This document shows positions 16,216-33,600 of a DNA stretch of 64,000 nt, in pieces. This DNA comes from an uncultured delta proteobacterium. GTDB lineage: Bacteria; Desulfobacterota; WTBG01. A model generated the notes under the pieces. The model was given only the letters and a program-made list of their open reading frames with translations, was not told the DNA's origin and searched no databases. Within the stretch, counting starts at the first letter, position 1; the number at the start of each line of letters is the position of its first letter. The position numbers and the translations under genes were made by a program. The stretch is taken from contig CAWCBP010000004.1 in the NCBI GenBank assembly GCA_963793865.1, forward strand, positions 292,526-356,525. Reading direction: 5' to 3'.

Positions 16216-17783
16216 CGATCTCCTGTCCTCTCGTGCCGGGCACCGGGTACCGTGGAAACCATCTTCACTTCAGCACCGCGCCGTGACGTTTTCGATTCTA
16301 CCTGGGTAATCAGGTGCTTGACCGTGGCATCCATCCGGGACAAAAACGGCCTTGGATAGACGCCGATCTGCACGATAAAGAAAATCAGCGGGAGCAGCAC
16401 ACAAACCTCCCGCAGCGAAAGGTCCTTAAGCGTCCGGTTCGCCTCTTTGGTGATCTCTCCGAACATCACCCGCTGGAACATCCACAGCATGTAGACCGCG
16501 GCGAAAATGACCCCGAGCGCGGCAAAAACGGCGTAGGCGGCGTTGGCCCTGAACGTGCCCAGGAGGATCAGGAACTCCCCCACGAACCCGTTGAGCCCGG
16601 GCAGGCCCACCGACGACAGGGTGACGATCATGAAGAAGGTGGCAAAAACCGGCATCACCTTGGAAAGGCCGCCGAACTCCTCGATGAGGCGGGTGTGCCG
16701 GCGCTCATAGATCATCCCCACGATGAGGAAGAGGGCGCCGGTTGAAAAGCCGTGATTGAGCATCTGCAGGATGCCCCCTTCGAGGCCCTGGATGTTAAGC
16801 GCGAAGATGCCCAGCACCACGAACCCCAGATGGCTCACGCTGGAAAAGGCGATCATCCGCTTCAGGTCCTTCTGCACAATGCAGACCAGGGCGCCGTAGA
16901 CGATGCCGATGATGGCCAGCACGGACATGAGGGGGACGAAGGCAATCGTGGCCTCGGCAAACAGGGGGAGGTTGAAGCGCAGGAATCCGTAGGTTCCCAT
17001 TTTCAGGAGCACCGCCGCCAGCAGCACGCTCCCCACCGTCGGCGCCTCGGTGTGGGCGTCGGGAAGCCAGGTATGAAAGGGAAACATGGGGACCTTGATG
17101 GCGAAGGCCAGGGCAAAGGCCAGAAACAGCCAGATCTGCATCCCGTAGGGAATGGAGAGCTTGTAGAGGTCCTCGAGCATGAAGGTATAGGTGCCGGTAA
17201 CGCTGTGGTTGTAAAAGTAGAGCACCAGGATGGCAACCAGCATCAAGAGGCTTCCGAACATGGTGAAGAGAAAGAACTTGACCGCCGCGTAAATCCTGCG
17301 GGCGGGCGCCCCCCAGACCCCGATGAGCAGGTACATGGGGATGAGCATGACCTCCCAGAAGATGTAAAAGAGGAAGAGGTCCAGCGAGACAAAGACGCCG
17401 ATGACCCCCGTCTCCAGCAGCAGCAGGCAGATCATGAACCCCTTCACCTTCTCCTGGATGTCCTTCCAGCAGGCAACCACCGAGATGGCCGTCAGAAAGG
17501 TGGTGAGCAGGACCAGGAAGAGGCTGATGCCGTCCACGCCCAAATGGTAGCTGATGCCGTATTCTTCCACCCAGGGAACGGTGGTGACGAACTGAAATTC
17601 GTGGGTGGTGCAGTCGAAGGCCCGGTAGAGAAGCAGGGAAATCAGGAAATTGAGCAGCGCCGTCAAAAAGGTGATGCCCTTGATCACGGCGGGCTTCTCC
17701 CTGCTGACGCCGACTATGAGCAGTATGCCGGCCAGGGGCAGAAAAATCAAAACCGAGAGGATATCAAAGCTGATGTTGGTCAT
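16212..17783 (-). CDS. nuoM: NADH-quinone oxidoreductase subunit M
   Basis: FWEVMLIPMY, PFHTWLPDAHTEAP, LLKMGTYG. Confidence 0.96.
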   Translation of the reverse strand: MTNISFDILSVLIFLPLAGILLIVGVSREKPAVIKGITFLTALLNFLISLLLYRAFDCTTHEFQFVTTVPWVEEYGISYHLGVDGISLFLVLLTTFLTAISVVACWKDIQEKVKGFMICLLLLETGVIGVFVSLDLFLFYIFWEVMLIPMYLLIGVWGAPARRIYAAVKFFLFTMFGSLLMLVAILVLYFYNHSVTGTYTFMLEDLYKLSIPYGMQIWLFLAFALAFAIKVPMFPFHTWLPDAHTEAPTVGSVLLAAVLLKMGTYGFLRFNLPLFAEATIAFVPLMSVLAIIGIVYGALVCIVQKDLKRMIAFSSVSHLGFVVLGIFALNIQGLEGGILQMLNHGFSTGALFLIVGMIYERRHTRLIEEFGGLSKVMPVFATFFMIVTLSSVGLPGLNGFVGEFLILLGTFRANAAYAVFAALGVIFAAVYMLWMFQRVMFGEITKEANRTLKDLSLREVCVLLPLIFFIVQIGVYPRPFLSRMDATVKHLITQVESKTSRRGAEVKMVSTVPGARHERTGDR

Positions 17784-17804
17784 TGTTCTCCCTTTTCCCT
17801 CCCA

Positions 17805-19772
17805 TCATTTCATGATCACGTAGAGGATGACCGCCAGGCCGAAGAGGATGGAGAGGGCATAGTTCTGGACAAAGCCCGTCTGCACATATTTGAGCAGGCC
17901 GCTCGCTTTTTTCACCAAGGCGGCGGACCCGTTCACCAGCGCACCGTCCACCACCTGTTCATCCAATCCCTTCCAGAGGAAGGTGGAGATGCTTTTTAAA
18001 GGCTCGACCACCAGCGCGTTATAAATCTCATCCACAAAGTACTTGTTGGTGAGCAGGTGGTAATAGCCCTTGAAGCGCCCGGCGATTTTATCAGGAAGCT
18101 CCGGCCGCCTGATATACAGATAGTAGGCGGTTATGATCCCGGCAAGCCCGATGGCGACGGAAACCCCCATCATCAGCAGCTCCAGGCCCGCCGAATGGTG
18201 CGCGAGCGGCTCCGCGGCGGCCGCCCCTTCGGAGGCAAATGCCAGCCCCGAGTACACCTTTTGCGCCACCTCCGCCGCGTGCCCGGCAACCACCGGCGCG
18301 AGGAAATCGTGGATGCGGTTCCATCCCGGGATCAGGGGAATGCCCACCAGGCCTCCGATGACCGAAAGCACCGCCAGAATCAGCAGGGGGACGGTCATCA
18401 CCGGGGGGGATTCGTGGACATGGTGCTCAACCTCCGGCTCCATGCGCGATGTCCCGTAAAAGGTCATGAAGACGGCGCGGAACATGTAGAAGGCGGTCAT
18501 GAAGGCGGCAAACGCCGCAACCGCCCAGAGGAGGAAGCTCTTCTGGAAGGCATTCCAGAGTATCTCGTCCTTGCTGAAAAAACCGGCAAAGGGCGGAATG
18601 CCGGCTATGGCCAGGCATCCGATGAAGAAGGTCATGTAGGTCACCGGCAGGCGGGACTTTAATCCCCCCATTTTCCTCATGTCCAGTTCGCCCGACAGGG
18701 CATGCATCACGCTGCCTGCGCAGAGAAAGAGCAGGGCCTTGAAAAAGGCGTGCGTCATCAGGTGGAAAATGCCGGCGGCAAAGGACCCCACCCCGCAGGC
18801 CAGAAACATGTAGCCCAGCTGGCTGATGGTGGAGTAGGCCAGGACCCGCTTGATGTCGTTGGCGACAATGGCAATGGAGGCGGTAAAGATGGCGGTAAGC
18901 GCGCCGATGACGGCAACCACCTGCATGGACAGGGGCGCAAGCGTGTAAAGGGCGCTGCACCGGGCCACCATGTAAACGCCGGCGGTGACCATGGTCGCCG
19001 CGTGGATGAGGGCGCTGACCGGGGTCGGGCCTTCCATGGCGTCGGGAAGCCAGACATAGAGCGGGATCTGCGCGGACTTGCCGCAGGCCCCGACAAAGAG
19101 AAGCAGGGTAATCAGCGTCACCGTGAGCTCTCCCCCCTTGAAGAACTGGGGCGCTTTTTCGAAAACGGGAAGAAAATCGAGGCTGCCGAACACCACGAAG
19201 ATGAGCATCATGGCCAGCAGAAAGCCGTAGTCCCCGATGCGGTTGACGATAAAGGCCTTCTTGCCCGCGTCGGCCGGCGCCTTCTTCCGGTACCAGAAGC
19301 CGATGAGCAGGTAGCTGCACAGCCCCACTCCCTCCCAGCCGATGAACATGAGCAGAAAGCTGTTGGCCGAAACCAGGATGAGCATGAAGAACACAAACAG
19401 GTTCAGGTAGGTGAAGTAGCGGCGGAACCCGGGGTCATCGTGCATGTAGCCGACTGAATAGACATGAATGACAAAGGAGACGCCGGACACGGTGAGCATC
19501 ATGATGAGCGAGAGGGCGTCCACCAGGAAGCCGATGTTCACCTGCAGGTCGCCGCAGGGTATCCAGCGGTAGAGCAGGATCTCAAAAACCCTCGCCTGGG
19601 GATCGGCCTGCAGCACCTGCGCCAGGATGAGGCAGGAAACCAGAAAGGAAAGCAGGATCATCGCCGACCCGATGATGCCGGTCAGGGTCTTGGGAAAGCG
19701 AATGCCCGCGAGGCCGTTCAGCAGCACGCCGATGAGGGGAAACGCGGGAACAAGCCATACATAGTCAATCAT
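17805..19772 (-). CDS. nuoL: NADH-quinone oxidoreductase subunit L
   Basis: GWEGVGLCSYLLIGFW, KSAQIPLYVWLPDAMEGPTPVSALIHAATMV. Confidence 0.96.
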   Translation of the reverse strand: MIDYVWLVPAFPLIGVLLNGLAGIRFPKTLTGIIGSAMILLSFLVSCLILAQVLQADPQARVFEILLYRWIPCGDLQVNIGFLVDALSLIMMLTVSGVSFVIHVYSVGYMHDDPGFRRYFTYLNLFVFFMLILVSANSFLLMFIGWEGVGLCSYLLIGFWYRKKAPADAGKKAFIVNRIGDYGFLLAMMLIFVVFGSLDFLPVFEKAPQFFKGGELTVTLITLLLFVGACGKSAQIPLYVWLPDAMEGPTPVSALIHAATMVTAGVYMVARCSALYTLAPLSMQVVAVIGALTAIFTASIAIVANDIKRVLAYSTISQLGYMFLACGVGSFAAGIFHLMTHAFFKALLFLCAGSVMHALSGELDMRKMGGLKSRLPVTYMTFFIGCLAIAGIPPFAGFFSKDEILWNAFQKSFLLWAVAAFAAFMTAFYMFRAVFMTFYGTSRMEPEVEHHVHESPPVMTVPLLILAVLSVIGGLVGIPLIPGWNRIHDFLAPVVAGHAAEVAQKVYSGLAFASEGAAAAEPLAHHSAGLELLMMGVSVAIGLAGIITAYYLYIRRPELPDKIAGRFKGYYHLLTNKYFVDEIYNALVVEPLKSISTFLWKGLDEQVVDGALVNGSAALVKKASGLLKYVQTGFVQNYALSILFGLAVILYVIMK

Positions 19773-19788: not shown

Positions 19789-20091
19789 CTACCACTTCAT
19801 GAGATTGATATCGTCAACGTTTAAGGTTTCCCTGTTCCGGTAGAGCGCGATGATGATGCCCAGTCCCACGGCGGCCTCGGCGGCGGCCACGGTCATGACG
19901 AAAAAGACAAACACCTGGCCGTCGAGAGAGTCAAGGTGGCGGGAAAAGGTTATGAAGGCCAGGTTGGCCGCGTTGAGCATCAGCTCGATGCACATGAAGA
20001 TGACGATGGCGTTCCGTCTGGTGAACACGCCCCACACGCCGATAAAAAAGAGGATGACGCTTAAAATCAGATAATGGGAAAGGGGAACCAT
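19789..20091 (-). CDS. nuoK: NADH-quinone oxidoreductase subunit K
   Basis: [21 protein letters not shown]. Confidence 0.96.
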
Positions 20092-20129
20092 GGCTTGCGT
20101 CCTTTCTGTGCCGCCCCGGGCGGGACGGT

Positions 20130-20639
20130 TTAGAGCTTCTTTTTGGCCAGCACCACCGCCCCGATGATGGCGGCCAGCAGCAGCACCGAGGTTATCTCAA
20201 AGGGCAGAAGAAAATCGGTAAAGAGCGCCTTTCCGATGAGCGCGCTGTTGCCGATGGCATCGACCTTCTCCGGGGGATACGCCCCCTTGGCTCCGGTGAA
20301 GACGCTCATGGTGCTTGCGGATATGAAGGAAAAGGCGATGGCCAGGCACAGCACCAGGGCCCAGAACTTCTGCGGCCCCCGGCCGTCCCCCGCGGAAGAC
20401 TCCCGATCCACGTTGAGCAGCATGATCACGAACAGAAACAGCACCATGATCGCACCGGCATAGACAATCACCTGAACGGCGGCGATGAACTGGGCGTTAA
20501 GCTGGAGGAAGATGCCCGCCAGGCAGAAGAAGCACAGGATCAGAAAGAGCGCGCTGTGCACGGGGTTCCTTCTTAAAATCACCATCAGCGATGAAATCAC
20601 CATCACTGCGGCCAGACTGTAAAAAATAAGCGCTTCCAT
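20130..20639 (-). CDS. nuoJ: NADH-quinone oxidoreductase subunit J
   Basis: [37 protein letters not shown]. Confidence 0.96.
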
Positions 20640-20729: not shown

Positions 20730-21164
20730 CTACTCTCTGAGGAGCCGCTCCTTGGTGTAGATCATGCTCTCCCGGGTGTAATCGGCAAGCTCATAGTCGC
20801 CGGTCAGCAAAAGGGCCCCCACCGGGCAGGCCTCCACGCAGTAGCCGCAGAAGATGCAGCGGGAGATGTCAATCTGGTAATGCTGGGCGTACTTGACATT
20901 GTTTTCCTTCTCACCCGCCTCAACGGTGATGCAGCGGGCGGGGCACACCGCCGCGCAGAGCGAGCAGGCCACGCACTTTTCTTTGCCCTCTTCATCCCGC
21001 AAAAGCTTATGCAGGCCGTGAAAGCGGGGATAGGGGGTCCGCCGCTCCTCGGGATACATTTGGGTGATGGGCTTCCCCAGTATGGTCGTACCGAGAAAAT
21101 ATGCCAGGGTTTCCTTCAGTCCCACCAGCAGCGCCCAGATGCGTTTGATCACAGAACCTACCAT
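20730..21164 (-). CDS. nuoI: NADH-quinone oxidoreductase subunit I
   Basis: CVACSLCAAVCP and CIFCGYCVEACP. Confidence 0.95.
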   Translation of the reverse strand: MVGSVIKRIWALLVGLKETLAYFLGTTILGKPITQMYPEERRTPYPRFHGLHKLLRDEEGKEKCVACSLCAAVCPARCITVEAGEKENNVKYAQHYQIDISRCIFCGYCVEACPVGALLLTGDYELADYTRESMIYTKERLLRE

Positions 21165-21178: not shown

Positions 21179-22225
21179 TTAAAGCAGATTAACCATTAGC
21201 AGAACGGCGGTGACTACAATATTAAGCAGCGCCAGTGGAAACAGAACCTTCCAGCCAAACTCCATCAGCTGGTCATAGCGCAGGCGCGGATAGGTCGCCC
21301 GGAGCCAGATGAAGAAAAAGAGGCAGAGGAAGACCTTGGCGCCGAAGACGCCCATGGGGATCAGGGCAACCGCCAGCTGACCCGCCGGGTTAGAAGGCTG
21401 GAAGCTGCTGATGTCCACAAACGGCAGGTGCCACCCCCCGAGAAACAGGGTGGTAATCAGCGAGCCCATGACGATCATGTGGGCGTACTCGGCCATGAAG
21501 AAAAGGGCGAACTTCATGCTGGAATATTCCACGTGGAAGCCGGCCACCAGCTCGTTCTCCGCTTCAGGCAGATCAAAGGGCGAGCGGTTGCACTCGGCTA
21601 TGCCGCAGATGAGAAAGATGATGAACCCTATCGGCTGCTGCACCACGTACCAGATGTCCGACTGGGCCCGCACCACCTCAACCAGGCTCAGCGACCCGGT
21701 GAGCATGAGCACCCCGATGACCGAGAGCCCCATGGCGATCTCGTAGCTGATCATCTGCGCCGAGGAGCGGATCCCGCCCATGAGCGCGTATTTATTATTG
21801 GAGGCCCATCCCGCCAGGGTCACGCCGTACACGTTCATGGAGCCGAGGGCAAAGATGTAGAGGATGCCGATGTCCACGTCGGCAACCCGCAGATCGATGG
21901 TATGACCGAAGAGGGTGATCACGTTGCCGAAGGGAACCACCGCGAACGAGGCGAAGGCGCAGACCGCCACGATGAAGGGGGCAAGGATGTAGATGACCTT
22001 GTTGGCCTTCTCCACCACGATATCCTCTTTGAAAAAGAGCTTGATGCCGTCGGCAATGGGCTGCAGCAGGCCGTGCCAGCCCGTTCTCATGGGGCCGTAG
22101 CGCACCTGCATGTGCCCGAGCACCTTGCGCTCCAGCCAGGTGAGATAGGCGACGCAGGTGAGCAGTACGATAAACACCACTATGACCTTAAGCAGCATTA
22201 TTATCATGGCAGCCATACTTGTCAT
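21179..22225 (-). CDS. nuoH: NADH-quinone oxidoreductase subunit H
   Basis: ERKVLGHMQVRYGP, QPIADGIKL, PFDLPEAENELVAGFHVEYS, PRLRYDQLM. Confidence 0.96.
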   Translation of the reverse strand: MTSMAAMIIMLLKVIVVFIVLLTCVAYLTWLERKVLGHMQVRYGPMRTGWHGLLQPIADGIKLFFKEDIVVEKANKVIYILAPFIVAVCAFASFAVVPFGNVITLFGHTIDLRVADVDIGILYIFALGSMNVYGVTLAGWASNNKYALMGGIRSSAQMISYEIAMGLSVIGVLMLTGSLSLVEVVRAQSDIWYVVQQPIGFIIFLICGIAECNRSPFDLPEAENELVAGFHVEYSSMKFALFFMAEYAHMIVMGSLITTLFLGGWHLPFVDISSFQPSNPAGQLAVALIPMGVFGAKVFLCLFFFIWLRATYPRLRYDQLMEFGWKVLFPLALLNIVVTAVLLMVNLL

Positions 22226-22318
22226 GGGAATGTATCTCTCCTGCAGATGCGCAATCAGCTAAATAAGTGCATTCATCCTGTTGATCTGAAATCCGAAATT
22301 CGAATAAACTTTTTACAT

Positions 22319-22531: not shown

Positions 22532-25141
22532 CTACACCTTTTCCAGTTTGACCCAAGTCGGGACAAGATCCCTGCTGGTCAGCCGGTTGACGGGGTGGTC
22601 TGCAAAGTGGCAGGGAATATACACCATTCCCTTGGCCTGCTTTCTGCTGATTTTCACCTTTGCCTCCAGTGACCCCATCCTTGATGTAACCAGCACCTTC
22701 TCTCCATCCCCAAGGCCGTATGTCCCGGCATCGGCGGGAGACACCTCCACCCTGCCTCCGGACCCGAGCTCGTTCAACGCCGGGGCGTGGGTTGACAGGG
22801 AACCGGAATGAAAGAGCATGCTGCCGGTGCGCAGCAGCAGCGGATAGTCACCATCAATCCCGCGGGCCGGTTCGGCATGCTCGAGCGGGACAAAGCTGTA
22901 GCTCGTTCGCCCGCCGCCCGGCGGGGACGGCACAAGCCGGCCTCCCGCTCCGAGGGATTCGCAGCTGATGTCCGCGTAGAGAGGAACCAGCGAGCCGATC
23001 TCCCTCATCACGTCCTCAGGCCCGGCTGCCTGCATGACATGACCCATCCTGCGGGACAGCTCGCAGAAAATTTCCAGGTCTGTTTTGACCCCTTCCATCA
23101 CCGGCAGCGCCGGGGACAGCGCCTGCACCCTCCGCTCGAAGCTGGTATAGGTGCCTTTTTTCTCGGCGAAGCTGGCCACCGGCAGCACGACGTCGGCCTG
23201 CCGGGCGGTGGGGGTTAAAAACATGTCCTGCACCACCAGGAAATCCAGGGACTCCAGGGCCTTCAGGGTGTATTCGCTTTCAGGATAGTTAAGCAGCGGG
23301 TTTTCCCCTGCCAGGTACAGCGCGTGCAGCCTGCCTTCCGCCGCGCTGGTGATCATTTCCATGGCATTTTGACCGGGCCGCGCGGGAAGGGTCACCTTCC
23401 ACGCTTCTTCAAAGCGGCCCCGCGTCTTGTCATCACCCACTTCACCGAATCCGGGCAGAAAACCGGGAAGCACTCCCATGTCCAGGGTGCCCTGGGAATT
23501 GCACTTCTCCCCCAGGAAGGCGATGCCGCATCCCTCCCGCTTCACCATCCCGGTCAGCAGGGCGAGGTTGGCCACCGCCAGACCCAGCTTTTCATCGTCC
23601 GCGGGAATCCCCAGGCCGGTGGAAAGGAGGATGCACAGCCGCCTGCTTCCCGCAATCAGGCGGGCTGCCTGCGCGAGGTCATCCCGGCCGACGCCGGTCA
23701 CCCCTTCACAATACTCAGGGGTGTACCGGGCCACCGACCTGTTGAGGTTTTCAAGACCGGCGGTCGAGGAAGAGACAAACTCCCTGTCGTACAGCCCCTC
23801 GCTGATAATGATATTGATCATGCCCTGGAGCAGGACCAGCTCGGTTTCGGGCCGGTGGATGAGCGCGCAGCTGGCCAGCCGGCTGTGCTTGATCGGCCGC
23901 TCGCCGGCGACAACCAGCTTTCGTTCGTCCCGTTTTACCGCCATGGTCACCTGGTATCCCACCACCGGATGCGTCTCGGAGAGGTGGGAGCGCAGCAGGA
24001 ACACGGTGTCCGCATTGCGTATGTCGTTCAGCGTGGCCGTTCCCGCGGTCAAGCCCAGCGCAGGCCTCAGCCCCTTCATCAGCCCCGAGTAGCTGTATCC
24101 CCCGGCGTGGTCGATGTTGTTGGTGCCGACGACGGCGCGTAAAAATTTCTGAAACAGGTAGGCCTCCTCATTGGTCAGGCGGCCGGAGCAGATGCCGCCG
24201 ATCCCGTCGGGCCCGTACTTTTGTTTGACCGCGCCCAAACCCCCGGCTATCTTCTCCATCGCCTCCGCCCAGGTGGCCCGCACCAGCCCCTCGGCGCCCT
24301 TTCTCACCAGGGGGCTGTTCATCCGCTCGGGGCTGGAGACATACCCGTAGCCGAACCGGCCCTTCGCGCAGAGGCTCCCGCGGTTGGCCCCGATGCTGTC
24401 GTCCCCGATCACCCGGTAGATGCGGTTGTTCTTCACCCCCAGGGTGATGGTGCAGCCGGTGCTGCAATATGAGCAGACGGTGCTGGTCCTGGTTAGCTCC
24501 CAGGAGCGCGCCTTGTATTTGAAAAGCTTGTCGGTGAGGGCGCCCACCGGGCAGATGTTAACGCACTCTCCGCAGAACTCGCAGTCCAGCACCCGGTCAA
24601 AGTCGGTGCCGATCCTGGTCTTGAATCCCCGGTTGACAAAGCTGATTTCGGATACGCCCACCATCTCCTCGCACACCCGCGCGCACATACCGCAGAGGAC
24701 GCAGCGGTTCACATTCCTTTCTATCAGGTGAGAGGCGGTTTCAGCCGGCTGGTTGAACTTGCGGTCAAGAAACCGGTTGCTGCTCACCTCGTATTCATAC
24801 ACCAGGTCCTGCAGCTTGCACTCGCCCCCCTTGTCGCACACGGGACAATCAAGGGGATGGTGCACCAGCAGGAGCTCAAGCAGCGTTTTGCGGGCGCTTC
24901 TCACCGCGGGGGTGTTGGTGCTTACCACCATGCCGTTGGCGGCCGGCGTGGAGCAGGAAGGGACCAGGCGGCCCTTCATCTGCTCGACCTCAACCACGCA
25001 CATGCGGCACGCCCCGAAGGGCATCAGGCGCTTGTGGTAGCAAAAGGTGGGAATATAAACCCCGGCAGCCTCCGCAGCCTCGAGGATGCTGGAGCCGTCC
25101 GCTACCTCTATTTCCCGATCGTCAATGGTCAAACTGATCAT
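22532..25141 (-). CDS. nuoG: NADH-quinone oxidoreductase subunit G (long, molybdopterin-oxidoreductase fold)
   Basis: [2Fe-2S] motif, HPLDCPVCDKGGEC, two CxxCxxCxxxC, CSYCSTGC; the FDH Cys/Sec-His position reads IDHAGGYSYS. Confidence 0.88.
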   Translation of the reverse strand: MISLTIDDREIEVADGSSILEAAEAAGVYIPTFCYHKRLMPFGACRMCVVEVEQMKGRLVPSCSTPAANGMVVSTNTPAVRSARKTLLELLLVHHPLDCPVCDKGGECKLQDLVYEYEVSSNRFLDRKFNQPAETASHLIERNVNRCVLCGMCARVCEEMVGVSEISFVNRGFKTRIGTDFDRVLDCEFCGECVNICPVGALTDKLFKYKARSWELTRTSTVCSYCSTGCTITLGVKNNRIYRVIGDDSIGANRGSLCAKGRFGYGYVSSPERMNSPLVRKGAEGLVRATWAEAMEKIAGGLGAVKQKYGPDGIGGICSGRLTNEEAYLFQKFLRAVVGTNNIDHAGGYSYSGLMKGLRPALGLTAGTATLNDIRNADTVFLLRSHLSETHPVVGYQVTMAVKRDERKLVVAGERPIKHSRLASCALIHRPETELVLLQGMINIIISEGLYDREFVSSSTAGLENLNRSVARYTPEYCEGVTGVGRDDLAQAARLIAGSRRLCILLSTGLGIPADDEKLGLAVANLALLTGMVKREGCGIAFLGEKCNSQGTLDMGVLPGFLPGFGEVGDDKTRGRFEEAWKVTLPARPGQNAMEMITSAAEGRLHALYLAGENPLLNYPESEYTLKALESLDFLVVQDMFLTPTARQADVVLPVASFAEKKGTYTSFERRVQALSPALPVMEGVKTDLEIFCELSRRMGHVMQAAGPEDVMREIGSLVPLYADISCESLGAGGRLVPSPPGGGRTSYSFVPLEHAEPARGIDGDYPLLLRTGSMLFHSGSLSTHAPALNELGSGGRVEVSPADAGTYGLGDGEKVLVTSRMGSLEAKVKISRKQAKGMVYIPCHFADHPVNRLTSRDLVPTWVKLEKV

Positions 25142-25206
25142 AATAAGCCTTCAACCTCGATGGTATCGCCTGTTTAATAAATTATCAATGGGCTACCGCC
25201 CCTTTG

Positions 25207-26994
25207 CTACTCAATGGCATTGAACTTACAGGCCATGATGCAGTTCTTGCACTTGACGCACTTCTCCCGGTCAATTGCGGCCACCTGCTTCTTTTCCCAG
25301 GTGATCGCCCCGGCGGGACAGGCCTTGAAGCACTGGCCGCACCGCTTGCAGAGCTCCGGATTCACCGCAAACTTGATCAAGGAAATGCAGGAGTGCGCGG
25401 GGCAGCGCTTTTCCTTTACGTGGGCCTCATATTCGTCGCGGAAATAGCGCAGGGTGGTGAGCACCGGGTTGGGCGCGGTATTGCCCAGGCCGCAGAGGGC
25501 CGTGCTCTTGATGGTTTGGGCCAGATCCTTAAGCGTCTCCAGGTCTTCTTCCTTGCCCTCGCCGGCGGTGATCCTGGTCAGGATATCAAGCATCATCTTG
25601 GTCCCCACCCGGCAGGGAATGCACTTGCCGCAGGACTCCTCCTGGGTGAACCCCAGAAAGAATTTCGCGATATCAACCATGCAGGTGGTTTCATCCATCA
25701 CCACCATGCCGCCGGACCCCATGATGGCACCGGTCTGACTGATCGACTCATAGTCCACCGGGGTGTCAACCAGCGACTCGGGAATGCACCCGCCCGACGG
25801 GCCGCCCATCTGCACCGCCTTGAACTTGCGCTTGCCCTTGATGCCGCCGCCGATATCGTAGATGATGGAGCGCAGGCTGGTGCCCATGGGCACTTCAACC
25901 AGGCCGATGTTGTTGACCGCGCCGGTCACGGCAAAGACCTTGGTGCCCTTGCTCTTTTCCGTTCCCAGCTCGCTGTACCAGCTGCCGCCGTGCAGGATGA
26001 TGGGCGGAACATTGGCGTAGGTCTCCACGTTGTTTAAAATGGTCGGCTTTCTCCACAGTCCCTTGTACGCGGGGAACGGAGGCCGCGGCCGCGGCATGCC
26101 CCGCTTTCCCTCAATGGAGGTCATCAGGGCCGTTTCCTCGCCGCAGACAAACGCCCCGGCTCCCTGGTAAATGTCAATGTCAAAATCGAAGTCCGAGTTA
26201 AGAATGTTCTTTCCCAGCAGGCCGTAGTCCCGCGACTGCCGGATGGCCACCTTGAGCCGGGAAACGGCGAGCGGATATTCCGCGCGCACGTAAATGTAGC
26301 CCTGATGGGCGCCGATGGCCTTGGCCGCGATGGTCATCCCCTCCAGAACCGAATGCGGGTCCGCCTCCAGGATGCTGCGGTCCATGAACGCGCCGGGGTC
26401 ACCCTCGTCCCCATTGCACAAAACATACTTCACCTCGCCCCTGGCCTTGGCGCAGAACTCCCACTTCAGCCCGGTGGGGAACCCCGCGCCGCCGCGGCCC
26501 CGAAGCCCGGAAATCTTGACCTCCTCGATGATGCCCTCGGGCGTCAGCTCGGTGAGCGCCTTTCCCAGGGCCTGGTATCCGTCACGTCCGATGTACTCTT
26601 CAATCTTTTCAGCATCGATGATGCCGCGGTTCCGTAATGCCCGGAGCACCTGCAGCCCGAAGAAGGAGATGTCCTGCATGCGGGGCACCGTCGCCTTCTT
26701 TTCCTCCTCCCGGTACATGAGCTTCTCGACCGGCCTTCCCTTGAGAAAATGCTCCGACACCAGCAGGGGGATGTCCTCCCGGGTGAGCCTTTGATAAAAG
26801 ATCCCCTCGGGGTAGACCACCATGACCGGGCCGACGGCGCAGAAGCCGTTGCATCCGGTGATGACCACCTGCACCTCTTCCTCCAGTCCGCACTTCTTGA
26901 GCTCTTCTTGAAGCGCCGTTCGCACTTGTAGCGACTTGTTGGACACACAGCCGGTTCCGGCGCAAATCAACGCATGTGAGCGAAAAGTTTTCAT
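25207..26994 (-). CDS. nuoF: NuoF/HydB (BfuB)-type NADH-binding flavoprotein
   Basis: N-terminal thioredoxin-like [2Fe-2S], GRGGAGFPTG, GDEGDPGAFMDR, GGPSGG, ESCGKCIPCR, C-terminal 2x[4Fe-4S]. Confidence 0.92.
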   Translation of the reverse strand: MKTFRSHALICAGTGCVSNKSLQVRTALQEELKKCGLEEEVQVVITGCNGFCAVGPVMVVYPEGIFYQRLTREDIPLLVSEHFLKGRPVEKLMYREEEKKATVPRMQDISFFGLQVLRALRNRGIIDAEKIEEYIGRDGYQALGKALTELTPEGIIEEVKISGLRGRGGAGFPTGLKWEFCAKARGEVKYVLCNGDEGDPGAFMDRSILEADPHSVLEGMTIAAKAIGAHQGYIYVRAEYPLAVSRLKVAIRQSRDYGLLGKNILNSDFDFDIDIYQGAGAFVCGEETALMTSIEGKRGMPRPRPPFPAYKGLWRKPTILNNVETYANVPPIILHGGSWYSELGTEKSKGTKVFAVTGAVNNIGLVEVPMGTSLRSIIYDIGGGIKGKRKFKAVQMGGPSGGCIPESLVDTPVDYESISQTGAIMGSGGMVVMDETTCMVDIAKFFLGFTQEESCGKCIPCRVGTKMMLDILTRITAGEGKEEDLETLKDLAQTIKSTALCGLGNTAPNPVLTTLRYFRDEYEAHVKEKRCPAHSCISLIKFAVNPELCKRCGQCFKACPAGAITWEKKQVAAIDREKCVKCKNCIMACKFNAIE

Positions 26995-27015
26995 CTGCCC
27001 GTTCCTTCCTGCAGC

Positions 27016-27399
27016 TTAATAGGTCGTTTCACTGCCCACCGCCAGGGCATATTTTTCCACTATCCTGCCGCCGATAACGTGTTCCACCAGGATCTCCCTG
27101 GTCTTCCCGTCATCCAGATCCACGTACTTGACCGGCGCTTCGCCGAGAAGCTCAACCGTGGCCATGGGCTCGCGGCTGCACAGCCCCGCGCATCCGGAGG
27201 TGGTAACGATGACATCCGTGATCTGCCGCTTGGCAATCTCATCCATAAACGCGCTCATGACCGCCCGCGCCCCGGACGCGATTCCGCAGGTCCCCATGTG
27301 GACGGTTATCTTGGCGCGCTGGCCGCCTTCCCGGAGGGTGGTGGCGGCTTTTGATTCCTCCTTTATCCGTTTCAAGTCATCGAGCGTCAGTTTCGGCAT
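27016..27399 (-). CDS. Thioredoxin-like [2Fe-2S] ferredoxin (HydD/HndB-like)
   Basis: VHMGTCGIASGA...TSGCAGLCSREP. Confidence 0.88.
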   Translation of the reverse strand: MPKLTLDDLKRIKEESKAATTLREGGQRAKITVHMGTCGIASGARAVMSAFMDEIAKRQITDVIVTTSGCAGLCSREPMATVELLGEAPVKYVDLDDGKTREILVEHVIGGRIVEKYALAVGSETTY

Positions 27400-27430
27400 A
27401 GCTTATACCTCCTGCGAGCAGCGCTTCCTG

Positions 27431-27580
27431 CAGGCTGTTGAAAAACGCCCATCTGCTGCGTTACACTCATCCTTCGTCATTGCAGCGTACTCACATGTAC
27501 GCCTCATTCCTCAGGATTTCGCGTGCCTTGCATCTGGATGTTTTTGAACAGCCTGCGGAAAACTATTTTTTCAACAACCT
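27431..27580. mobile_element. MITE (27431-27555) with CAGGCTGTTGAAAAA-type terminal inverted repeats, plus an extra partial TIR
   Basis: caggctgttgaaaaa...tttttgaacagcctg; related sequences at 38379 and 61870. Confidence 0.75.
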
Positions 27581-28109
27581 AATAATAATTTTTCTTTATG
27601 GTGTCTAAAGCCGTCGCCGGCTCCAGCAGGCCATAGGTGTCTTCGTTAACCATCATGGCCGGCGCGAGGCCGCAGCACCCGATGCAGCGCACGCCCTCCA
27701 GGGAAAATTTCTTGTCCGGCGTCACCTCGCCTTCGTGTATGCCCAGCTCCTGCTGCAGCCGCTTGTAAATTTCCTCGCTCCGCTTGACGAAACAGGCCGT
27801 CCCCAGGCAGACGCGGACATTGTATTTGCCCCGGGGCTTCATGGTAAAATAGGAGTAGAAGGAAACCACCCCGTACACCAGGCTGGGCGAAGTGTTCAGG
27901 CCTTCGGCAATTCTGCGCTGCACCTCCGCGGGCAGAAAGCCGCACACCTCCTGACACTGCTGGAGAACGGGTATGAGCGCACCGGCCTTGCCGACGTGCT
28001 CATCGATGACCCGGTCAACCTTTTCCCACTGCTCCGCGGTTATCTCCACGGTAACGTCCTGCTGCTTCTGCGCTGATTCTGCGTTCATTACTTGGAATAC
28101 CTCCACCAT
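27579..28109 (-). CDS. nuoE: NuoE/HydC-type [2Fe-2S] subunit
   Basis: VYGVVSFYSYF, VCLGTACFV, RCIGCCGLAP. Confidence 0.92.
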   Translation of the reverse strand: MVEVFQVMNAESAQKQQDVTVEITAEQWEKVDRVIDEHVGKAGALIPVLQQCQEVCGFLPAEVQRRIAEGLNTSPSLVYGVVSFYSYFTMKPRGKYNVRVCLGTACFVKRSEEIYKRLQQELGIHEGEVTPDKKFSLEGVRCIGCCGLAPAMMVNEDTYGLLEPATALDTIKKNYY

Positions 28110-28122
28110 GATATATATCTAT

Positions 28123-28668
28123 CTAATGCACGCCCAGCTGCGCCAGGCCCTCCTCGAGATCGCCCCTGATCAGCCCGATCACCCGGGGATCGGAAACGGG
28201 GACCTCGCCCAACTCCTTCCCGATCACCGCTGTGTCAAGGCTGTAGGTTCGGCCATCCCTGCGATGATGATAATAAAAGCTGATCCCGGGATTGCCCGCG
28301 ATGAGGGTGATCAGGGTCTCAACCATGTTTCCCCAGGGCTTGCGATCAATGTGGCTTGCCTGAAAGGTACCGGTCAGCTTCGTCCCCCTGCCCGGCTCGG
28401 ATTCTATGTGAACCCCGCCATTGCACGCCCGGGCCGCCTGGGCAAAGAGCGGTAATCCCAGGCCCACCTTTCTGGTCGTCCGCGTTGTCACAAAAGGATC
28501 CAGCACCCTGTCCGCCATCTTCCTGCTCATGCCCGTGCCGTCGTCGGTAATTTCTATGGTGAGCAGATCCCTGATGCTGTCCTCGTCTATCCCGATTTCG
28601 ATCCGCGTTGCCGCCGCGGTTATTGAATTCTCGGCAAGATCAAGAATGTGGAGGGAAAAATCCTGCAC
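28123..28668 (-). CDS. Stand-alone HATPase_c (histidine kinase-like ATPase)
   Basis: HILDLAENS, DDGTGM, DPFVTTRTTRKVGLGLPL, SHIDRKP; no sensor or HisKA domain. Confidence 0.88.
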   Translation of the reverse strand: MQDFSLHILDLAENSITAAATRIEIGIDEDSIRDLLTIEITDDGTGMSRKMADRVLDPFVTTRTTRKVGLGLPLFAQAARACNGGVHIESEPGRGTKLTGTFQASHIDRKPWGNMVETLITLIAGNPGISFYYHHRRDGRTYSLDTAVIGKELGEVPVSDPRVIGLIRGDLEEGLAQLGVH

Positions 28669-28672: not shown

Positions 28673-29422
28673 TCACCCTACCCCGAGCACCTTTCTGCCC
28701 TCTTTTCCCCCGAGCGCCAGTCTCATCTCGCCGATGCCGGCGGCCGACATCAGAAAGACGGTCGAACTTCTGCCGATCCCATCAAGGGAGTGGGCATCCG
28801 ATGAGCTGATGAAGGGGAGATGGTCGAGCCCGGGAAACCGCCTCCGCGCCTCATCCAGGCCCGTGGCCGGCGAAACCTCCAGCGCATCCAGCGCCAGCCC
28901 CGGCGGCACAAAGCCGAGCTGGCTGATGATGCTGTATGCCTCGCGATCAATGTGGGAGGCAACGGCAAGACCGCCCCGGGAGTGAATCAGCTCGACCACC
29001 GCTTCCAGGGGAAGGGTTGTTGCCCCGATCAGCAATTTTTCATTAAAGGACACGACCTCCTCGTGTTCATTGACCACAACCTGGCAGCCGAAGGTTTTTT
29101 CATCGTTTTTGCCGGGGAGGTGCTCGTACACAACCCCCTGCACCTCAAGGGCATGCGCTTCCGTTTCAAAAAGGCCCAGGATGTGAATTTCTTCCCGAGT
29201 GGTTATCTCCATTCCCGCCAGCGCCGCCAGCCCGGCGTCCTGCGCCGCCTTGTGCAGGGCGGGAAAATTCTCGCAGGAGTTGTGGTCGCACACCGCAATC
29301 ACCTGCAGGCCCGCCTCCACCGACCGTCGCACAATGGCACGGGGCGACATTTCGACAGGCTCGGTACAGGGAGAGAGGATGGAATGGATATGCAAATCCG
29401 CCCGATACGCCCTGAGCATCAC
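28673..29422 (-). CDS. PHP domain phosphoesterase
   Basis: DLHIHS, CDHN, GMEITTREEIH, SHIDR, SSDAH. Confidence 0.9.
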   Translation of the reverse strand: MMLRAYRADLHIHSILSPCTEPVEMSPRAIVRRSVEAGLQVIAVCDHNSCENFPALHKAAQDAGLAALAGMEITTREEIHILGLFETEAHALEVQGVVYEHLPGKNDEKTFGCQVVVNEHEEVVSFNEKLLIGATTLPLEAVVELIHSRGGLAVASHIDREAYSIISQLGFVPPGLALDALEVSPATGLDEARRRFPGLDHLPFISSSDAHSLDGIGRSSTVFLMSAAGIGEMRLALGGKEGRKVLGVG

Positions 29423-29763
29423 CTCGTTCCGGAAATGCCGAGGCCGTACAGCCTGCCCACGAGCTCAAAGGTCTGCAGCTCGCTCACCATAAGCGGGACG
29501 CCTTCCTGACGAGCCTTTTCCGCCGTCTGTTCCTCGGGCTTCCTGCCCTGAACCACAACGATGCCGGCCAGCCCCTTGAGCGAGGCAACGGCGATGACAT
29601 TGGGATGCGCCTGCATGGTCACCCAGATGTCGCCCTCCCTGCTGTTGGCCATGACGTCACTCAGCAGGTCGCTCGCGTAACCGCCGGTAACCTCCCCCTC
29701 CAGGTTCTCCCCGGCCGCCACCACCTTCAGCTCCAGTTTCTCCACGATATCCTTGAGCTTCAT
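29419..29763 (-). CDS. DRTGG domain protein
   Basis: VTGGYASDLLSDVMA, WVTMQAHPNVIAVA. Confidence 0.85.
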   Translation of the reverse strand: MKLKDIVEKLELKVVAAGENLEGEVTGGYASDLLSDVMANSREGDIWVTMQAHPNVIAVASLKGLAGIVVVQGRKPEEQTAEKARQEGVPLMVSELQTFELVGRLYGLGISGTR

Positions 29764-29783
29764 CCCATTCCCTTCAGTGGTTA

Positions 29784-31097
29784 TCACGCACCCTTCTTGC
29801 GAATCGAAAGAGGGGCTTTCTGAGCTATTTCAAGTCCCCTGAGCAGCGATTCCATGGTCGCTTCCCTGAGCTTGAACACGCAATCAGTGACCTCACCCCT
29901 TCCCTGGATGACATCCTCGGCAAAGGATTTACAGTTCGGGGCGCCGCATGCCCCGCAATTAATGCGCGGGAGACTCTCTAAAATGGATTCCCGCTCCTTT
30001 ACTTTCCTGATCGCCTCCCTGGCATCCGTGCCCAGCGGCTGCACGGGATAGGTGGACAGCTCAACATCGCATGACAGGTGGGCGCGCATCCGCTCCACTT
30101 CAGCGAGGTTAATGTTTAACTTCCTCCCCAGCTGCTGAATCAGTTTCATGGCCTTGATCTTGGCCAGAAAGCGATTATCCACCGCAAGGGGGCCCCCCAC
30201 GCACCCGCCGGGGCAGGCCCATAATTCCAGGTAGTTTACATTGGTGATTTTGCCGCGCTCCACGTCCTCCAGTATTTTGATTACATTTTTAACCCCGTCC
30301 ACGGCTATGGCATTCTCGATTTCGAGGCCGGCAATGCATGCGCCGGGGATCCCCGTGGCCACACCGAAGCCCCCCGAGTCGTGAAGCGGCTCAAGCGACT
30401 TGATCTTGCGGATGGCGCTAAAGAGAACCCCGTAGATATCCGAAATGGCAATGGCACCGTCCAGGGTCGGATCCGATTTGAAGATGGGGTGATTTACGGC
30501 GATCATCTTGGCGGGGCAGGGGGTGATAAAAATGGCCCCGACATCCTGGGGGCTTATTCCCAGTATTTTGGCCTTGGCCATCTTATATGCGCCGGCGATG
30601 GCGCTGGGCGCCTCCATGGAAAGCAGATTTCCCATGAGATCGGGAAAGTTTATCTGGATCAGCCTGACAACGGCCAGGCAGACGGTTGAGATGTAGGGCT
30701 TGTTTTGAGAATAGCTCTGGAGGTGTTCCTTGAGCACCGCCGAATAAATTTCACAGGCCCTGCCCACATCATAGGCCTCGTTAAAACCCAGACCCTTAAG
30801 ACCGTTTAAAATATGGTTGGGGGTAACGCCCATGCTGTACTGGGAGTACAGAACCGGAGAAGGTATGGCGATGGTGTATTTAAACCTGGTCAGGTCTTCG
30901 AACGACCCGGTCATGGATCGGACCGCCCGGGCGGGACATACCCGGATGCAGTCACCGCAGTCAATGCACCGGTCCTCCAGAATGAGGGCCTTGCCCTCAC
31001 GGATGCGCATGGCCTCGGTTGGACACGCCCGCATGCACTGCATGCAGCCGGTGCATTTATCGGTTTCCACCTCGATGGAGTGATAATATTTGCTCAT
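29784..31097 (-). CDS. [FeFe]-hydrogenase-like Fe-S protein (putative sensory HydS/group D-like)
   Basis: N-terminal 2x[4Fe-4S]; H-cluster-like motifs STVCL, TPCPAKM, ELWACPGGCVGG; C-terminal CGACGAPNC...C Fe-S domain. Confidence 0.82.
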   Translation of the reverse strand: MSKYYHSIEVETDKCTGCMQCMRACPTEAMRIREGKALILEDRCIDCGDCIRVCPARAVRSMTGSFEDLTRFKYTIAIPSPVLYSQYSMGVTPNHILNGLKGLGFNEAYDVGRACEIYSAVLKEHLQSYSQNKPYISTVCLAVVRLIQINFPDLMGNLLSMEAPSAIAGAYKMAKAKILGISPQDVGAIFITPCPAKMIAVNHPIFKSDPTLDGAIAISDIYGVLFSAIRKIKSLEPLHDSGGFGVATGIPGACIAGLEIENAIAVDGVKNVIKILEDVERGKITNVNYLELWACPGGCVGGPLAVDNRFLAKIKAMKLIQQLGRKLNINLAEVERMRAHLSCDVELSTYPVQPLGTDAREAIRKVKERESILESLPRINCGACGAPNCKSFAEDVIQGRGEVTDCVFKLREATMESLLRGLEIAQKAPLSIRKKGA

Positions 31098-31552
31098 GGC
31101 CGGTCTTTATTTCCGGTTAGGATGACCATTTCCACCCGCGTGCCCTCACCTACCACCGAGCTGATGCGCAATTCATCGGTGTTCTTCTTGATGTTGGGCA
31201 ATCCCAGGCCGGCCCCGAAGCCCATTTCCTTGATTTCCCTGGAGGAGGTTGAATAACCCTCCTGCATGGCCAGCTCGATATCCGGAATGCCCTGCCCCTC
31301 ATCATCGGCAATGACCGTGAGAAGATCCGGGGTAATGGCCAGGTGAAACGCTGCATGCCGCGCATAGCACACCACGTTCATCTCGGCTTCATAGACGGCA
31401 ATAGCCGCCCGCCTGATGATGTCATGGCTTATGCCGATGTCTTTTAAAATCGCCTTAATGCTGCTTGAAACCTCGCCGGCATGAATGAAATCGCCGCCCT
31501 GTACGGCAAACTCCCGCTCCAGCAGGGGCTCAGCTTGTTTTTCCTGCATCAT
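31094..31552 (-). CDS. RsbW/RsbT-like Ser/Thr kinase (anti-sigma regulatory factor fold)
   Basis: YEAEMNVV, DEGQGIPDIELAMQEGYST, GFGAGLGLPNIKK. Confidence 0.88.
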   Translation of the reverse strand: MMQEKQAEPLLEREFAVQGGDFIHAGEVSSSIKAILKDIGISHDIIRRAAIAVYEAEMNVVCYARHAAFHLAITPDLLTVIADDEGQGIPDIELAMQEGYSTSSREIKEMGFGAGLGLPNIKKNTDELRISSVVGEGTRVEMVILTGNKDRP

Positions 31553-31904
31553 CAACTCTTTCAATACAACCGGACAGGCCGTGCTTGAACAACCTGCCGC
31601 AGGTTTCAAACATGATGTAACGGGTGCAGAAGAGCGGAATCTTTTTGGCCCGGGCAAGCTTGATCGCTTCCTCGTCAGGCCTTTTGCCCCTCACGAAGAC
31701 AATGCCCAGCAGCTCCAGCATTTCAGCGGTGCGCACCACTTGCGGGTTGGTAATCCCGGTTATGAGGAGCGCGCCCTCCCTGGCAAAGGCCAGAACGTCG
31801 CTCAGGAGGTCGGAAGCAAAGGCGCCCCTGATGGTATCCTCCATGCGGTCATCACCGACCACAACCTCCGCTCCCAAAATATCCGCCAGCTCTCTGAAGG
31901 TCAT
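31530..31904 (-). CDS. DRTGG domain protein
   Basis: AFASDLLSDVLA, LLITGITNPQVVRTAEM, VFVRGKRP. Confidence 0.85.
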   Translation of the reverse strand: MTFRELADILGAEVVVGDDRMEDTIRGAFASDLLSDVLAFAREGALLITGITNPQVVRTAEMLELLGIVFVRGKRPDEEAIKLARAKKIPLFCTRYIMFETCGRLFKHGLSGCIERVDDAGKTS

Positions 31905-31933: not shown

Positions 31934-33121
31934 CTACCGGTCCACCTCTCCCAGGCAGATGTCAATGCTGCCGATAATGGCAACGATGTCGGCCATCATC
32001 CGCCCCTGCGCCATGGTGCAGAACGACTCCATGTTCACAAAGGAGGGGGTTCTGATCTTCACCCGGTAGGGCTTGCTGCCCCCATCGCTCACAATATAAA
32101 AGCCCAGCTCCCCTTTTGACGACTCCACGCTGCAATACGCCTCGCCTTTGGGCACATTGAATCCCTCGGTCATCAAATGGAAGTGGATGATCAATGACTC
32201 AATGCTTTCCTGCACCAGCTCCTTCGGAGGAGGCACCACCTTGGGGCTCACGGCGTTGAACGGGCCCGAGGGCAGCCGCTCCAGGGCCTGCCTGATGATC
32301 CGGTTGCTCTGGCGCATCTCCTCCAGCCGCACCAGGTAGCGGTCATACGAATCCCCGTACCGGCCGGTGGGTATCTCGAAATCAAAGTGATCGTAGGAGG
32401 AATAGGGATTGGCCTTGCGCAGATCCCACTTTACCCCGCAGCCCCTCAGGCAGGGGCCGGAAAGCCCCAGGGCGATGCCCTCTTCCGCTGAAATGACCCC
32501 CACGCCCTTTGTCCGGTTGAGCCAGATCTTGTTTTCGGTCAGCAGGCGCTCGTACCCGTCAATCCGAGAGGGCAGCACCTCACAGAAGGCCTTCACCTTT
32601 TCTTCAAACCCGTCAGGCAGGTCGGCGGCAAGGCCCCCGATGCGAAAGTAGCTCTGGTTCATCCGGGCCCCGCCCACCATTTCAAACATGTCCAGGGTTT
32701 CTTCCCGCTCGCGGAAGCAGTAGAGCAGCGGCGACATGGCCCCGATGTCCAGGGCATGGGTTCCCAGCCAGATGAGATGGCTCTGGATCCTGGTAAGTTC
32801 GGCGAGCAGCACCCTGGCATACTGGGCCCGGAGCGGAACCTCCAGGTCCAGAAGCTTCTCAACCGTAAGCACGTAGGCAAGGTTGTTGATGAAGGGCGAG
32901 GTATAATCCAGCCGGTCGGTGAGGGTGATGAACTGGTGGTAGGTTTTATGCTCGGCCAGCTTCTCGATGCCCCGGTGCAGATACCCCAGCACCGGGGTTG
33001 CCTTGGTGACCACCTCGCCGTCGAGCTCCAGCACCACCCGGAGCACCCCGTGGGTGCTTGGATGCTGGGGGCCCATGTTCAGGGTTACCACCTCTGTCCT
33101 GATGTCAGACGCTGTTTCCAT
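31934..33121 (-). CDS. nuoD: NADH-quinone oxidoreductase subunit D
   Basis: NMGPQHPSTHGVLR, GYLHRGIEK, DRLDY, GEVDR; no Ni-binding CxxC. Confidence 0.96.
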   Translation of the reverse strand: METASDIRTEVVTLNMGPQHPSTHGVLRVVLELDGEVVTKATPVLGYLHRGIEKLAEHKTYHQFITLTDRLDYTSPFINNLAYVLTVEKLLDLEVPLRAQYARVLLAELTRIQSHLIWLGTHALDIGAMSPLLYCFREREETLDMFEMVGGARMNQSYFRIGGLAADLPDGFEEKVKAFCEVLPSRIDGYERLLTENKIWLNRTKGVGVISAEEGIALGLSGPCLRGCGVKWDLRKANPYSSYDHFDFEIPTGRYGDSYDRYLVRLEEMRQSNRIIRQALERLPSGPFNAVSPKVVPPPKELVQESIESLIIHFHLMTEGFNVPKGEAYCSVESSKGELGFYIVSDGGSKPYRVKIRTPSFVNMESFCTMAQGRMMADIVAIIGSIDICLGEVDR

Positions 33122-33139
33122 ACTGTGCAAAGCCCCCGT

Positions 33140-33600
33140 TTATCTTCCCCGCAGCGGAAAATCTTTTCTGAGCGGATACTCTTTAAAGCCGTCCGGGGTG
33201 AGGATCCTCCTCAAATCAGGATGATCGCTGAAGGTTATTCCCAGGAGATCGTAGCACTCCCGCTCGTGCCAGTTCGCCGTCTTCCAGACAGAAACCACGG
33301 AAGGCACGGTAAGGTCATCGTCCGGGGGGAGGTCTTCATGCGCAGCCGGTGCCGGTGCTTCATGGAATAGAGGTGATACACCACCTCAAACCGGGGCGCC
33401 CGGCCCAGGTAATCGACGCCGCAGAGGTCGGAGAGGAAGTCAAACCCGCAGGAGGGATCTTCCTTGAGGAAGCGCGACACCTCGAGCAGGCGGGACAGCT
33501 TGACCCGTATGGTATGCTCATCCTTATAGACCGCCGTTTCTTCGATGGCCTCAGGAAAGGTTTCCTTTATTTTCCCCACCAGCTCTTCCAGGTCAGCCAT
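33140..33600 (-). CDS. nuoC: NADH-quinone oxidoreductase subunit C, frameshift in homopolymer near 33325
   Basis: LCGVDY...[10 protein letters not shown]; shifted frame gives [26 protein letters not shown]...[11 protein letters not shown]. Confidence 0.92.

Follow-up and report, generated by a model that had tools for sequence, protein, structure and literature searches.

A complex I operon with a Bfu-type NADH module and an embedded signalling cassette in an uncultured Desulfobacterota bacterium

In this study, a 64,000-nucleotide stretch of DNA (the window) from an uncultured delta proteobacterium of the Desulfobacterota (GCA_963793865.1, contig CAWCBP010000004.1, positions 292,526 to 356,525) was analyzed. 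Its minus strand carries a complex I (nuo) operon in which the NADH module is of the electron-bifurcating Bfu type. NuoF is a BfuB subunit, and NuoG has a formate dehydrogenase (FDH) fold without catalytic residues. It is moderately probable that the complex works by forward confurcation, in which NADH and reduced ferredoxin are oxidized together, menaquinone is reduced and protons are pumped.

This kind of enzyme, Nuo-Bfu, was already predicted by Schut et al. 2022, with 51 sequences, BfuB clades 38 and 39 and an example in Geobacter (PMC9304861). The initial annotation of the window had called such enzymes predicted from genomes and not characterized. This agrees with that paper and with a search of the open-access literature, in which no biochemical test of Nuo-Bfu was found (subscription journals lay outside the search). 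The locus is a variant of the predicted kind, with an activity predicted from sequence. The gain is narrower because the idea is in print; new here are a second, widespread lineage, tree evidence for a swappable BfuB module, and a cassette that persists without H2 chemistry, which makes the target of the cassette testable.

Bfu-type features of the NADH module

The 595-aa NuoF had been assigned HydB/BfuB features, which were borne out by the alignment of ligands and motifs and by the ranking of PDB matches. The nine best PDB matches were B subunits of Hyd, Bfu and Nfn enzymes (692–871 bits; 7t2r_B 871); canonical NuoF matches reached 417 bits or less. Ligands were found for the [4Fe-4S] clusters B1 (C455/C458/C461/C501) and B3 and B4 (two CxxCxxCxxxC motifs at the C-terminal end), for the [2Fe-2S] cluster B5 (C11/C16/C48/C52), and for B2 in the form C-T-H-C-C (C438/T476/H525/C531/C536). 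Schut et al. list the same B2 ligands and report Thr for position 476 in roughly two of three BfuB; the B2 His, they note, is missing from non-bifurcating homologues (PMC9304861). In the alignment, the B2 His and its Cys partners were kept in all 53 rows of the Nuo-linked clades and not in E. coli NuoF.

NuoF carries the motifs GDEGDPGAFMDR (A202, M204), GTKVF (350) and GGPSGG (397). The residues A/E232, M234 and GGPSG 427–431 of Losey et al. (PMC7311640; T. maritima numbering) correspond to A202, M204 and GGPSG 397–401 at an offset of 30. The same offset places the Phe at T. maritima 367 on G337, which is not aromatic; by the description in the paper, this Phe near the flavin mononucleotide (FMN) is F282 in GAGAFVCGEE, which fits.

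The best structural relatives of NuoF were NiFe-BfuABCSL (7T2R) and HydABC (7Q4V), with 871 and 839 bits, whose B2 ligands have the same residue numbers. These enzymes, from A. mobile and A. woodii, respectively, are soluble and use H2 as third substrate. The A subunit encoded here lacks a catalytic site, and its gene cluster belongs to an operon for a proton pump. The 11 subunits other than NuoEFG, the quinone-site motifs and the three antiporter subunits resemble those of canonical complex I (E. coli NuoA-N and T. thermophilus Nqo). In contrast to the canonical complex, NuoF is about 150 aa longer with B2–B5, A/M replaces T/K at the NADH site, and NuoG has two CxxCxxCxxxC motifs where E. coli NuoG has none. 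The Nqo1 counterpart of the F282 site is presumably the Tyr of GAGAY.

NuoE has the C1 [2Fe-2S] site of BfuC. The HydD-like ferredoxin gene that had been noticed between nuoE and nuoF was confirmed. Its product is 28% identical to the N-terminal domain of NuoF and has no Pfam match, and the gene adjoins nuoF in all loci of the cassette type described below.

NuoG had been described as free of an H-cluster and of an FDH catalytic residue, and motif comparison with FDHs upheld this. The FDH motif DHCARL(U/C)H is replaced by DHAGGYSYSG in NuoG, and RGQNNVQG by GEKCNSQG. Five iron-sulfur (FeS) sites remain ([2Fe-2S], His-ligated, two CxxCxxCxxxC and N7-like), and the FDH Cys, His and Arg are lost. 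The AlphaFold model (predicted local distance difference test score, pLDDT, 84) had a template modelling (TM) score of 0.93 to 7vw6_A, an NAD-dependent FDH alpha fold. An active FDH was rejected because the Mo/W-ligating Cys/Sec, His and Arg motifs are replaced.

On the minus strand, the genes follow the order DUF3786, nuoA-D, six further genes (the cassette), nuoE, the HydD-like gene, nuoF, nuoG and nuoH-N. The BfuABC genes are enclosed by a complete nuoA-N cluster, with nuoC counted as intact. The claim that nuoA-D and nuoH-N are all present was correct; it passed over the broken reading frame of nuoC in the source assembly, and the six genes between nuoD and nuoE, including an H-domain protein, were missed. 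In contigs from 4/4 sequencing runs (X1 may be the source sample; X2, X3 and X17 come from different studies), an additional G follows position 33323, and a congener (G003) encodes an intact 153-aa NuoC. The frameshift is therefore an assembly error, and a pseudogene was rejected. NuoD keeps the quinone-site motifs GPQHPSTHG and DRLDY. A group 4 [NiFe]-hydrogenase was rejected, since NuoD scored above the TIGR01962 cut-off and no PF00374 match was found at the locus. The host genome has one nuo operon, and within that operon the only NuoE, NuoF and NuoG are those described here. The position of BfuABC within nuoA-N, the degenerate FDH motifs of NuoG and the menaquinone-containing host all agree with the predicted Nuo-Bfu (PMC9304861).

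Direction of the reaction and host metabolism

Schut et al. predict that Nuo-Bfu co-oxidizes NADH and reduced ferredoxin and reduces menaquinone (PMC9304861). The energetics were calculated from the potentials of that paper and from two variants of them; a pumping ratio of 4 H+ per quinone was assumed, as in canonical complex I with NuoL/M/N. NADH alone onto menaquinone supports 103–123 mV, and confurcation of NADH and reduced ferredoxin onto menaquinone balances at 146–158 mV. The initial annotation had proposed ion pumping coupled to NADH oxidation, with the electrons divided between quinone and ferredoxin. Such a split is chemically conceivable because the potential of NADH lies between those of the other two partners, and no Rnf that could make reduced ferredoxin was found. 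However, its yield is only −28 to +3 kJ per quinone (no more than 73 mV with 4 H+), which cannot pay for 4 H+, and NuoL, NuoM and NuoN are all present, so no lowered stoichiometry is evident. Bifurcation from NADH is very improbable, and the proposed direction is probably backwards.

From the observed genes, motifs, conserved order, trees and host gene content, we infer the following assembly, ferredoxin coupling, direction and stoichiometry. The operon would encode one membrane complex, a 14-subunit-type complex I with a BfuABC core and accessory HydD as NADH module. NADH would bind at the FMN of NuoF, and reduced ferredoxin would dock at B3/B4 and feed B2/C1. Both electron streams would merge and pass through the FeS chain of NuoG to NuoI, NuoB and NuoD, reducing menaquinone (MK), and NuoL/M/N/H would pump protons: NADH + 2 Fd(red) + 2 MK -> about 8 H+ out. 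The addition of ferredoxin would lift the sustainable proton-motive force (pmf) from about 100–120 mV with NADH alone to about 150 mV. The complex would be an ion-pumping outlet for ferredoxin from carbon monoxide dehydrogenase (CODH), aldehyde ferredoxin oxidoreductases (AORs) and NfnAB, in a host without detected Rnf or active hydrogenase.

The host genome (G000; 3.85 Mb, 98.6% complete) encodes several other BfuB paralogues besides NuoF. A NuoF that is 97% identical to this one is labelled Deltaproteobacteria. Menaquinone should be available through a futalosine gene cluster (mqnA/D, MqnE-like, MqnC-like, a decarboxylase and a prenyltransferase; some below cut-off). Wood-Ljungdahl genes lie from window position 58.8 kb onward, 24–39 kb from the operon. 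Selenocysteine (Sec)-containing FDHs are present, and motif searches gave a CODH match and six AOR matches. Neither RnfD nor a convincing NiFe hydrogenase was found in the host genome. Sulfate reduction was rejected as electron sink, as no dsrA was found there; 38 open reading frames with at least two CxxCH are possible quinol sinks. An nfnAB-like pair (window 35420–37723, plus strand) is divergent from the nuo operon, to which it may be functionally linked. By established chemistry, NfnAB would yield NADH and reduced ferredoxin together from NADPH. The host content fits confurcation, because menaquinone, Wood-Ljungdahl, CODH/AOR, nfnAB and multiheme genes are present and RnfD was not found. 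A large multiheme cytochrome gene cluster, with up to 14 CxxCH, lies at G000:C1:548-577 kb in this dsrA-less genome.

The same gene set was compared with three other functions. The enzyme may be a plain NADH:menaquinone complex I with inherited Bfu clusters and uncoupled ferredoxin. The motifs are correlates and not proof, the number of clusters alone fails to separate groups (Losey et al., PMC7311640), and NADH alone suffices at a pmf near 100–120 mV or with fewer protons pumped. Nevertheless, the B2–B5 ligands are kept across three separate Nuo-linked BfuB lineages, and the non-bifurcating residues (T/S, K) are not present in NuoF, which makes this explanation unlikely. Alternatively, the enzyme could run mainly in reverse: driven by pmf, it would oxidize menaquinol and deliver NADH and reduced ferredoxin to carbon fixation or to the export of formate. 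At about 150 mV the reaction stands close to equilibrium, and Wood-Ljungdahl genes and Sec-FDHs are present without Rnf; yet a pmf above 146–158 mV is required, and the many multiheme cytochromes fit downstream quinol oxidation. Mainly reversed use is quite unlikely. Finally, E-D-F-G could be a soluble redox or sensor module of its own, with its genes placed in the operon of a ferredoxin-fed complex of 11 subunits. The cassette is probably regulatory, and stand-alone modules with a catalytically dead G subunit occur amid signalling genes both in Nitrospirota and in the host (G000:C1:737-745 kb). This separation is improbable, as the gene for NuoG stands at the canonical site ahead of nuoH in all Nuo-linked lineages, NuoG clusters with its Geobacter counterpart, and the Geobacter cluster is reported to be co-expressed (PMC9304861).

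Several points weigh against confurcation onto menaquinone. For all characterized Bfu third substrates tabulated by Schut et al., the potential is about −320 mV or lower, a long way from that of menaquinone (PMC9304861). The outcome hangs on the potentials: with a −150 mV quinone, NADH alone supports 75 mV, confurcation 112 mV and the split 0 mV. The figure of 4 H+ per quinone is assumed. Related E-(D)-F modules with dead G occur without nuo genes, among two-component genes or beside etf genes; docking on a membrane arm is thus not required of these subunits. The cassette is not present in two class relatives (G029 and G031) and is thus dispensable.

If the ferredoxin coupling is true, complex I would merge two donors, with full proton pumping workable on low-potential menaquinone. 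Anaerobes without Rnf or hydrogenase would have an ion-coupled ferredoxin outlet, and Bfu chemistry would reach a third substrate about 250 mV above any characterized one.

Distribution and probable exchange of the input module

The phylogeny of NuoF was investigated in two BfuB trees, built by quick IQ-TREE runs from 68 and 67 of the 213 rows. Single nodes are soft because branches are long and the trees are quick. NuoF fell in a 39-row clade (Shimodaira-Hasegawa approximate likelihood-ratio test, SH-aLRT, 98–99), mostly of cassette- and HydD-linked BfuBs, many of them soluble. Geobacter-type NuoF formed a separate clade. Forcing all 26 rows of the Nuo-linked clades together cost 261 log units (approximately unbiased test, p-AU 4e-49; group defined by gene context after a FastTree tree had been seen, E. 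coli left out), and a single origin of all Nuo-linked BfuB was rejected.

NuoG, in contrast, was sister to the Nuo-Bfu NuoG of Geobacteraceae/Desulfuromonadales (SH-aLRT 96) and lay outside active FDHs (50 of 81 rows). NuoD+H grouped with families f27 and f58 (support 96, 34 rows). Since NuoG is sister to that of Geobacter and NuoF is not, the input module appears to have been swapped: the trees indicate that BfuB was exchanged, or strongly diverged, on a shared NuoG and membrane arm. NuoF is only 53–56% identical to the Geobacter type, and the separate HydD gene and the six-gene cassette were in none of the 16/16 Geobacter-type named loci. NuoF grouped with Nitrospirota sequences and not with Geobacter-type BfuB; the membership list of Schut clades 38/39 lay outside the comparison, and the lineage may sit inside clade 39.

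Of 44 sampled loci in which BfuB and nuoD lie within range (the E. coli control not counted), 17 had cassette genes, whole or partial, plus HydD, 2 had HydD alone and 25 had neither. The loci were chosen by similarity to NuoF and PHP, so these counts are not frequencies, and a few of the sampled Nitrospirota loci could come from one genome. Cassette-type loci were found in the host-phylum families f1, f3, f4, f27 and f58 and in Nitrospirota, and E-(D)-F-G sits between nuoD and nuoH across lineages. The PHP gene was present in 77/301 host-phylum genomes; 6 of the 40 PHP loci fetched lay within a nuo operon, and most others stood beside soluble Bfu genes. In the Nitrospirota sample, 42/121 genomes matched NuoF at threshold, 16 of them at 71–74% over full length, and the newly fetched loci had the nuo-cassette layout in 5/5 cases. 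A second, cassette-less Nuo-Bfu also exists in Nitrospirota (L286).

Other arrangements were observed. In f58 loci (L224, L225, L227, L234), the DRTGG-kinase pair stands before nuoA and the remaining cassette after nuoD, which shows that the operon was rearranged without losing these genes. In L252, L253 and L254, cassette genes lie directly 3' of nuoN, outside the operon interior. Three loci (L021 in G010, L023 in G005, and L141), and L022 and L026 in part, encode a Nuo-linked NuoF 1016 aa long that has DPD-II and an FAD/NAD(P)H domain instead of the B3/B4 end. By its domains, this complex I possibly takes NADPH in place of ferredoxin, and such a swap would be expected if the B3/B4 end serves as a functioning input port. 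This fusion (sub-type I) is described for hydrogenase BfuB, and GltD-fused BfuB and gain and loss of HydD/BfuD are likewise described for hydrogenases (PMC11406978); "Nuo" does not occur in the text of that paper.

Modules of E-(D)-F and a dead FDH-like G without nuo genes lie amid histidine kinases and response regulators at G000:C1:733-745 kb (L129) and in Nitrospirota (L272-L279); in L273, NuoE is fused to a receiver domain. These modules are possible Bfu-based redox sensors. In family f14 (L226, L228), the cassette, E, D, F and dead G are followed directly by etf genes and an acyl-CoA dehydrogenase gene, making them candidates for an Etf-linked Bfu. A soluble cluster at G000:C11:27-32 kb (L128) encodes a molybdopterin-family protein, ferredoxins, a 570-aa NuoCD-like protein and a NuoB-like protein, with no membrane subunits seen.

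The signalling cassette and operon layout

The nuoD and nuoE genes are separated by genes for DRTGG, a SpoIIAB-like kinase, a 437-aa protein, a second DRTGG, a PHP phosphatase and a HATPase (Table 1). A search of the open-access literature found no description of this cassette inside a nuo operon (subscription journals lay outside the search). In clostridia, the same set of six stands ahead of hydABCD loci, for example in L067 (Clostridium leptum), which also has HydD. In L067 the A subunit is a hydrogenase, whereas here it is NuoG and the block is flanked by nuoABCD and nuoH-N. To judge from the domain families, the DRTGG, kinase, PHP and HATPase genes are most likely a phosphorylation switch inherited with the BfuBCD module, and the ASDLLSDVL motif of DRTGG protein 1 is a candidate phospho-acceptor.

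The 437-aa protein is an [FeFe]-hydrogenase H-domain protein and the only PF02906 match in the host genome; through it the operon, though not NuoG, carries H-cluster motifs. Like TamHydS, a putative sensory hydrogenase of group D (PMC10407848, PMC13104023), it has N-terminal 2x[4Fe-4S] ferredoxin motifs, four H-cluster Cys and a C-terminal FeS domain. Its homologues show the S249/E252/D265/E289 spacing reported in PMC10407848, and TamHydS residues were mapped by this spacing and not by direct alignment. Unlike in TamHydS, the S249 counterpart is Ile and the proton-path Glu (E252) is Ala; this position is Glu in 28/36 homologue rows and Ala here and in 3/4 nuo-linked rows. HydG was not found in the host genome, in 10/10 family relatives or in G012 and G013, and was above cut-off in 10/41 genomes. 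HydF was not above cut-off in the 98.6% complete host genome or in 5/5 cassette-type hosts; HydE was not searched for. Because HydF and HydG were not found, the protein is probably unable to receive a diiron site or to sense H2, and is probably a [4Fe-4S]-only relic or redox sensor. A working H2 sensor is disfavoured by the failure to find HydF and HydG and by the Ala at E252. The group D gene is kept in only 3/17 cassette-type loci. A single-sequence fold of the protein was unusable (pLDDT 34).

A wider scheme is conceivable, though doubtful. The kinase/PHP/DRTGG/HATPase set and the H2-blind hydrogenase-scaffold FeS redox sensor would act on HydD or NuoE/F and toggle complex I between NADH-only, confurcating and reverse modes. 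NuoG and the membrane arm would have stayed constant while the input module was replaced at least twice, one version taking NADPH instead of ferredoxin.

Table 1. Features of the nuo operon in the window
Feature	Position	Strand	Remarks
DUF3786 protein, first gene of apparent operon, 15 bp before nuoA	34450..35130	-	Pfam PF12654; same position in congener G003
nuoA	34069..34434	-	
nuoB	33593..34099	-	
nuoC, one base missing in assembly near 33323 (assembly error)	33140..33600	-	
nuoD	31934..33130	-	above TIGR01962 cut-off
DRTGG protein 1	31530..31904	-	Pfam PF07085; motif ASDLLSDVL
SpoIIAB-like HATPase_c_2 protein, putative Ser/Thr kinase	31094..31657	-	PF13581; TIGR01925 below cut-off; real start probably near 31552
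Group D (TamHydS-like) [FeFe]-hydrogenase-domain protein, 437 aa	29784..31097	-	
DRTGG protein 2	29419..29787	-	
PHP-family putative phosphatase	28673..29422	-	
Stand-alone HATPase_c protein, no HisKA match	28123..28668	-	
NuoE/BfuC, 176 aa, thioredoxin-like [2Fe-2S] (C1)	27579..28109	-	PF01257, E 3e-48
MITE-like element between nuoE and hydD, 32-nt inverted ends, not enzyme part	27425..27561	.	multicopy in genome
HydD/BfuD-like thioredoxin-fold ferredoxin, 127 aa, 3 Cys	27016..27399	-	
NuoF/BfuB, 595 aa, FMN/NADH site and clusters B1-B5	25207..26994	-	
NuoG/BfuA, 869 aa, five FeS sites on catalytically dead FDH-alpha fold	22532..25141	-	
nuoH	21179..22225	-	
nuoI	20730..21164	-	
nuoJ and nuoK	19789..20639	-	
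nuoL, nuoM and nuoN, three antiporter-like subunits	14746..19772	-	

Promoter and terminator scans of the operon yielded nothing usable, and no Rfam family was found. Contigs of the RNA run X17 cover 28/30 bins with a small word share, which cannot show transcription. The intergenic gaps from DUF3786 to nuoE are all below 30 bp. Two longer gaps, nuoE-hydD (179 bp) and nuoG-nuoH (306 bp), contain multicopy repeats. The miniature inverted-repeat transposable element (MITE)-like element in the former has 43 genome matches of at least 80 bp, itself included, and a repetitive extragenic palindromic (REP)-like element at about 22275–22460 in the latter has 13 matches. The nuoE-hydD gap is about 30 bp in G003. 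Elsewhere in the host genome, the CODH gene and three other BfuB paralogues are split over two frames (C1:620.3-622.0, C12:144-146, C14:322-324 and C1:514-516 kb), probably by the same type of single-base assembly error as in nuoC.

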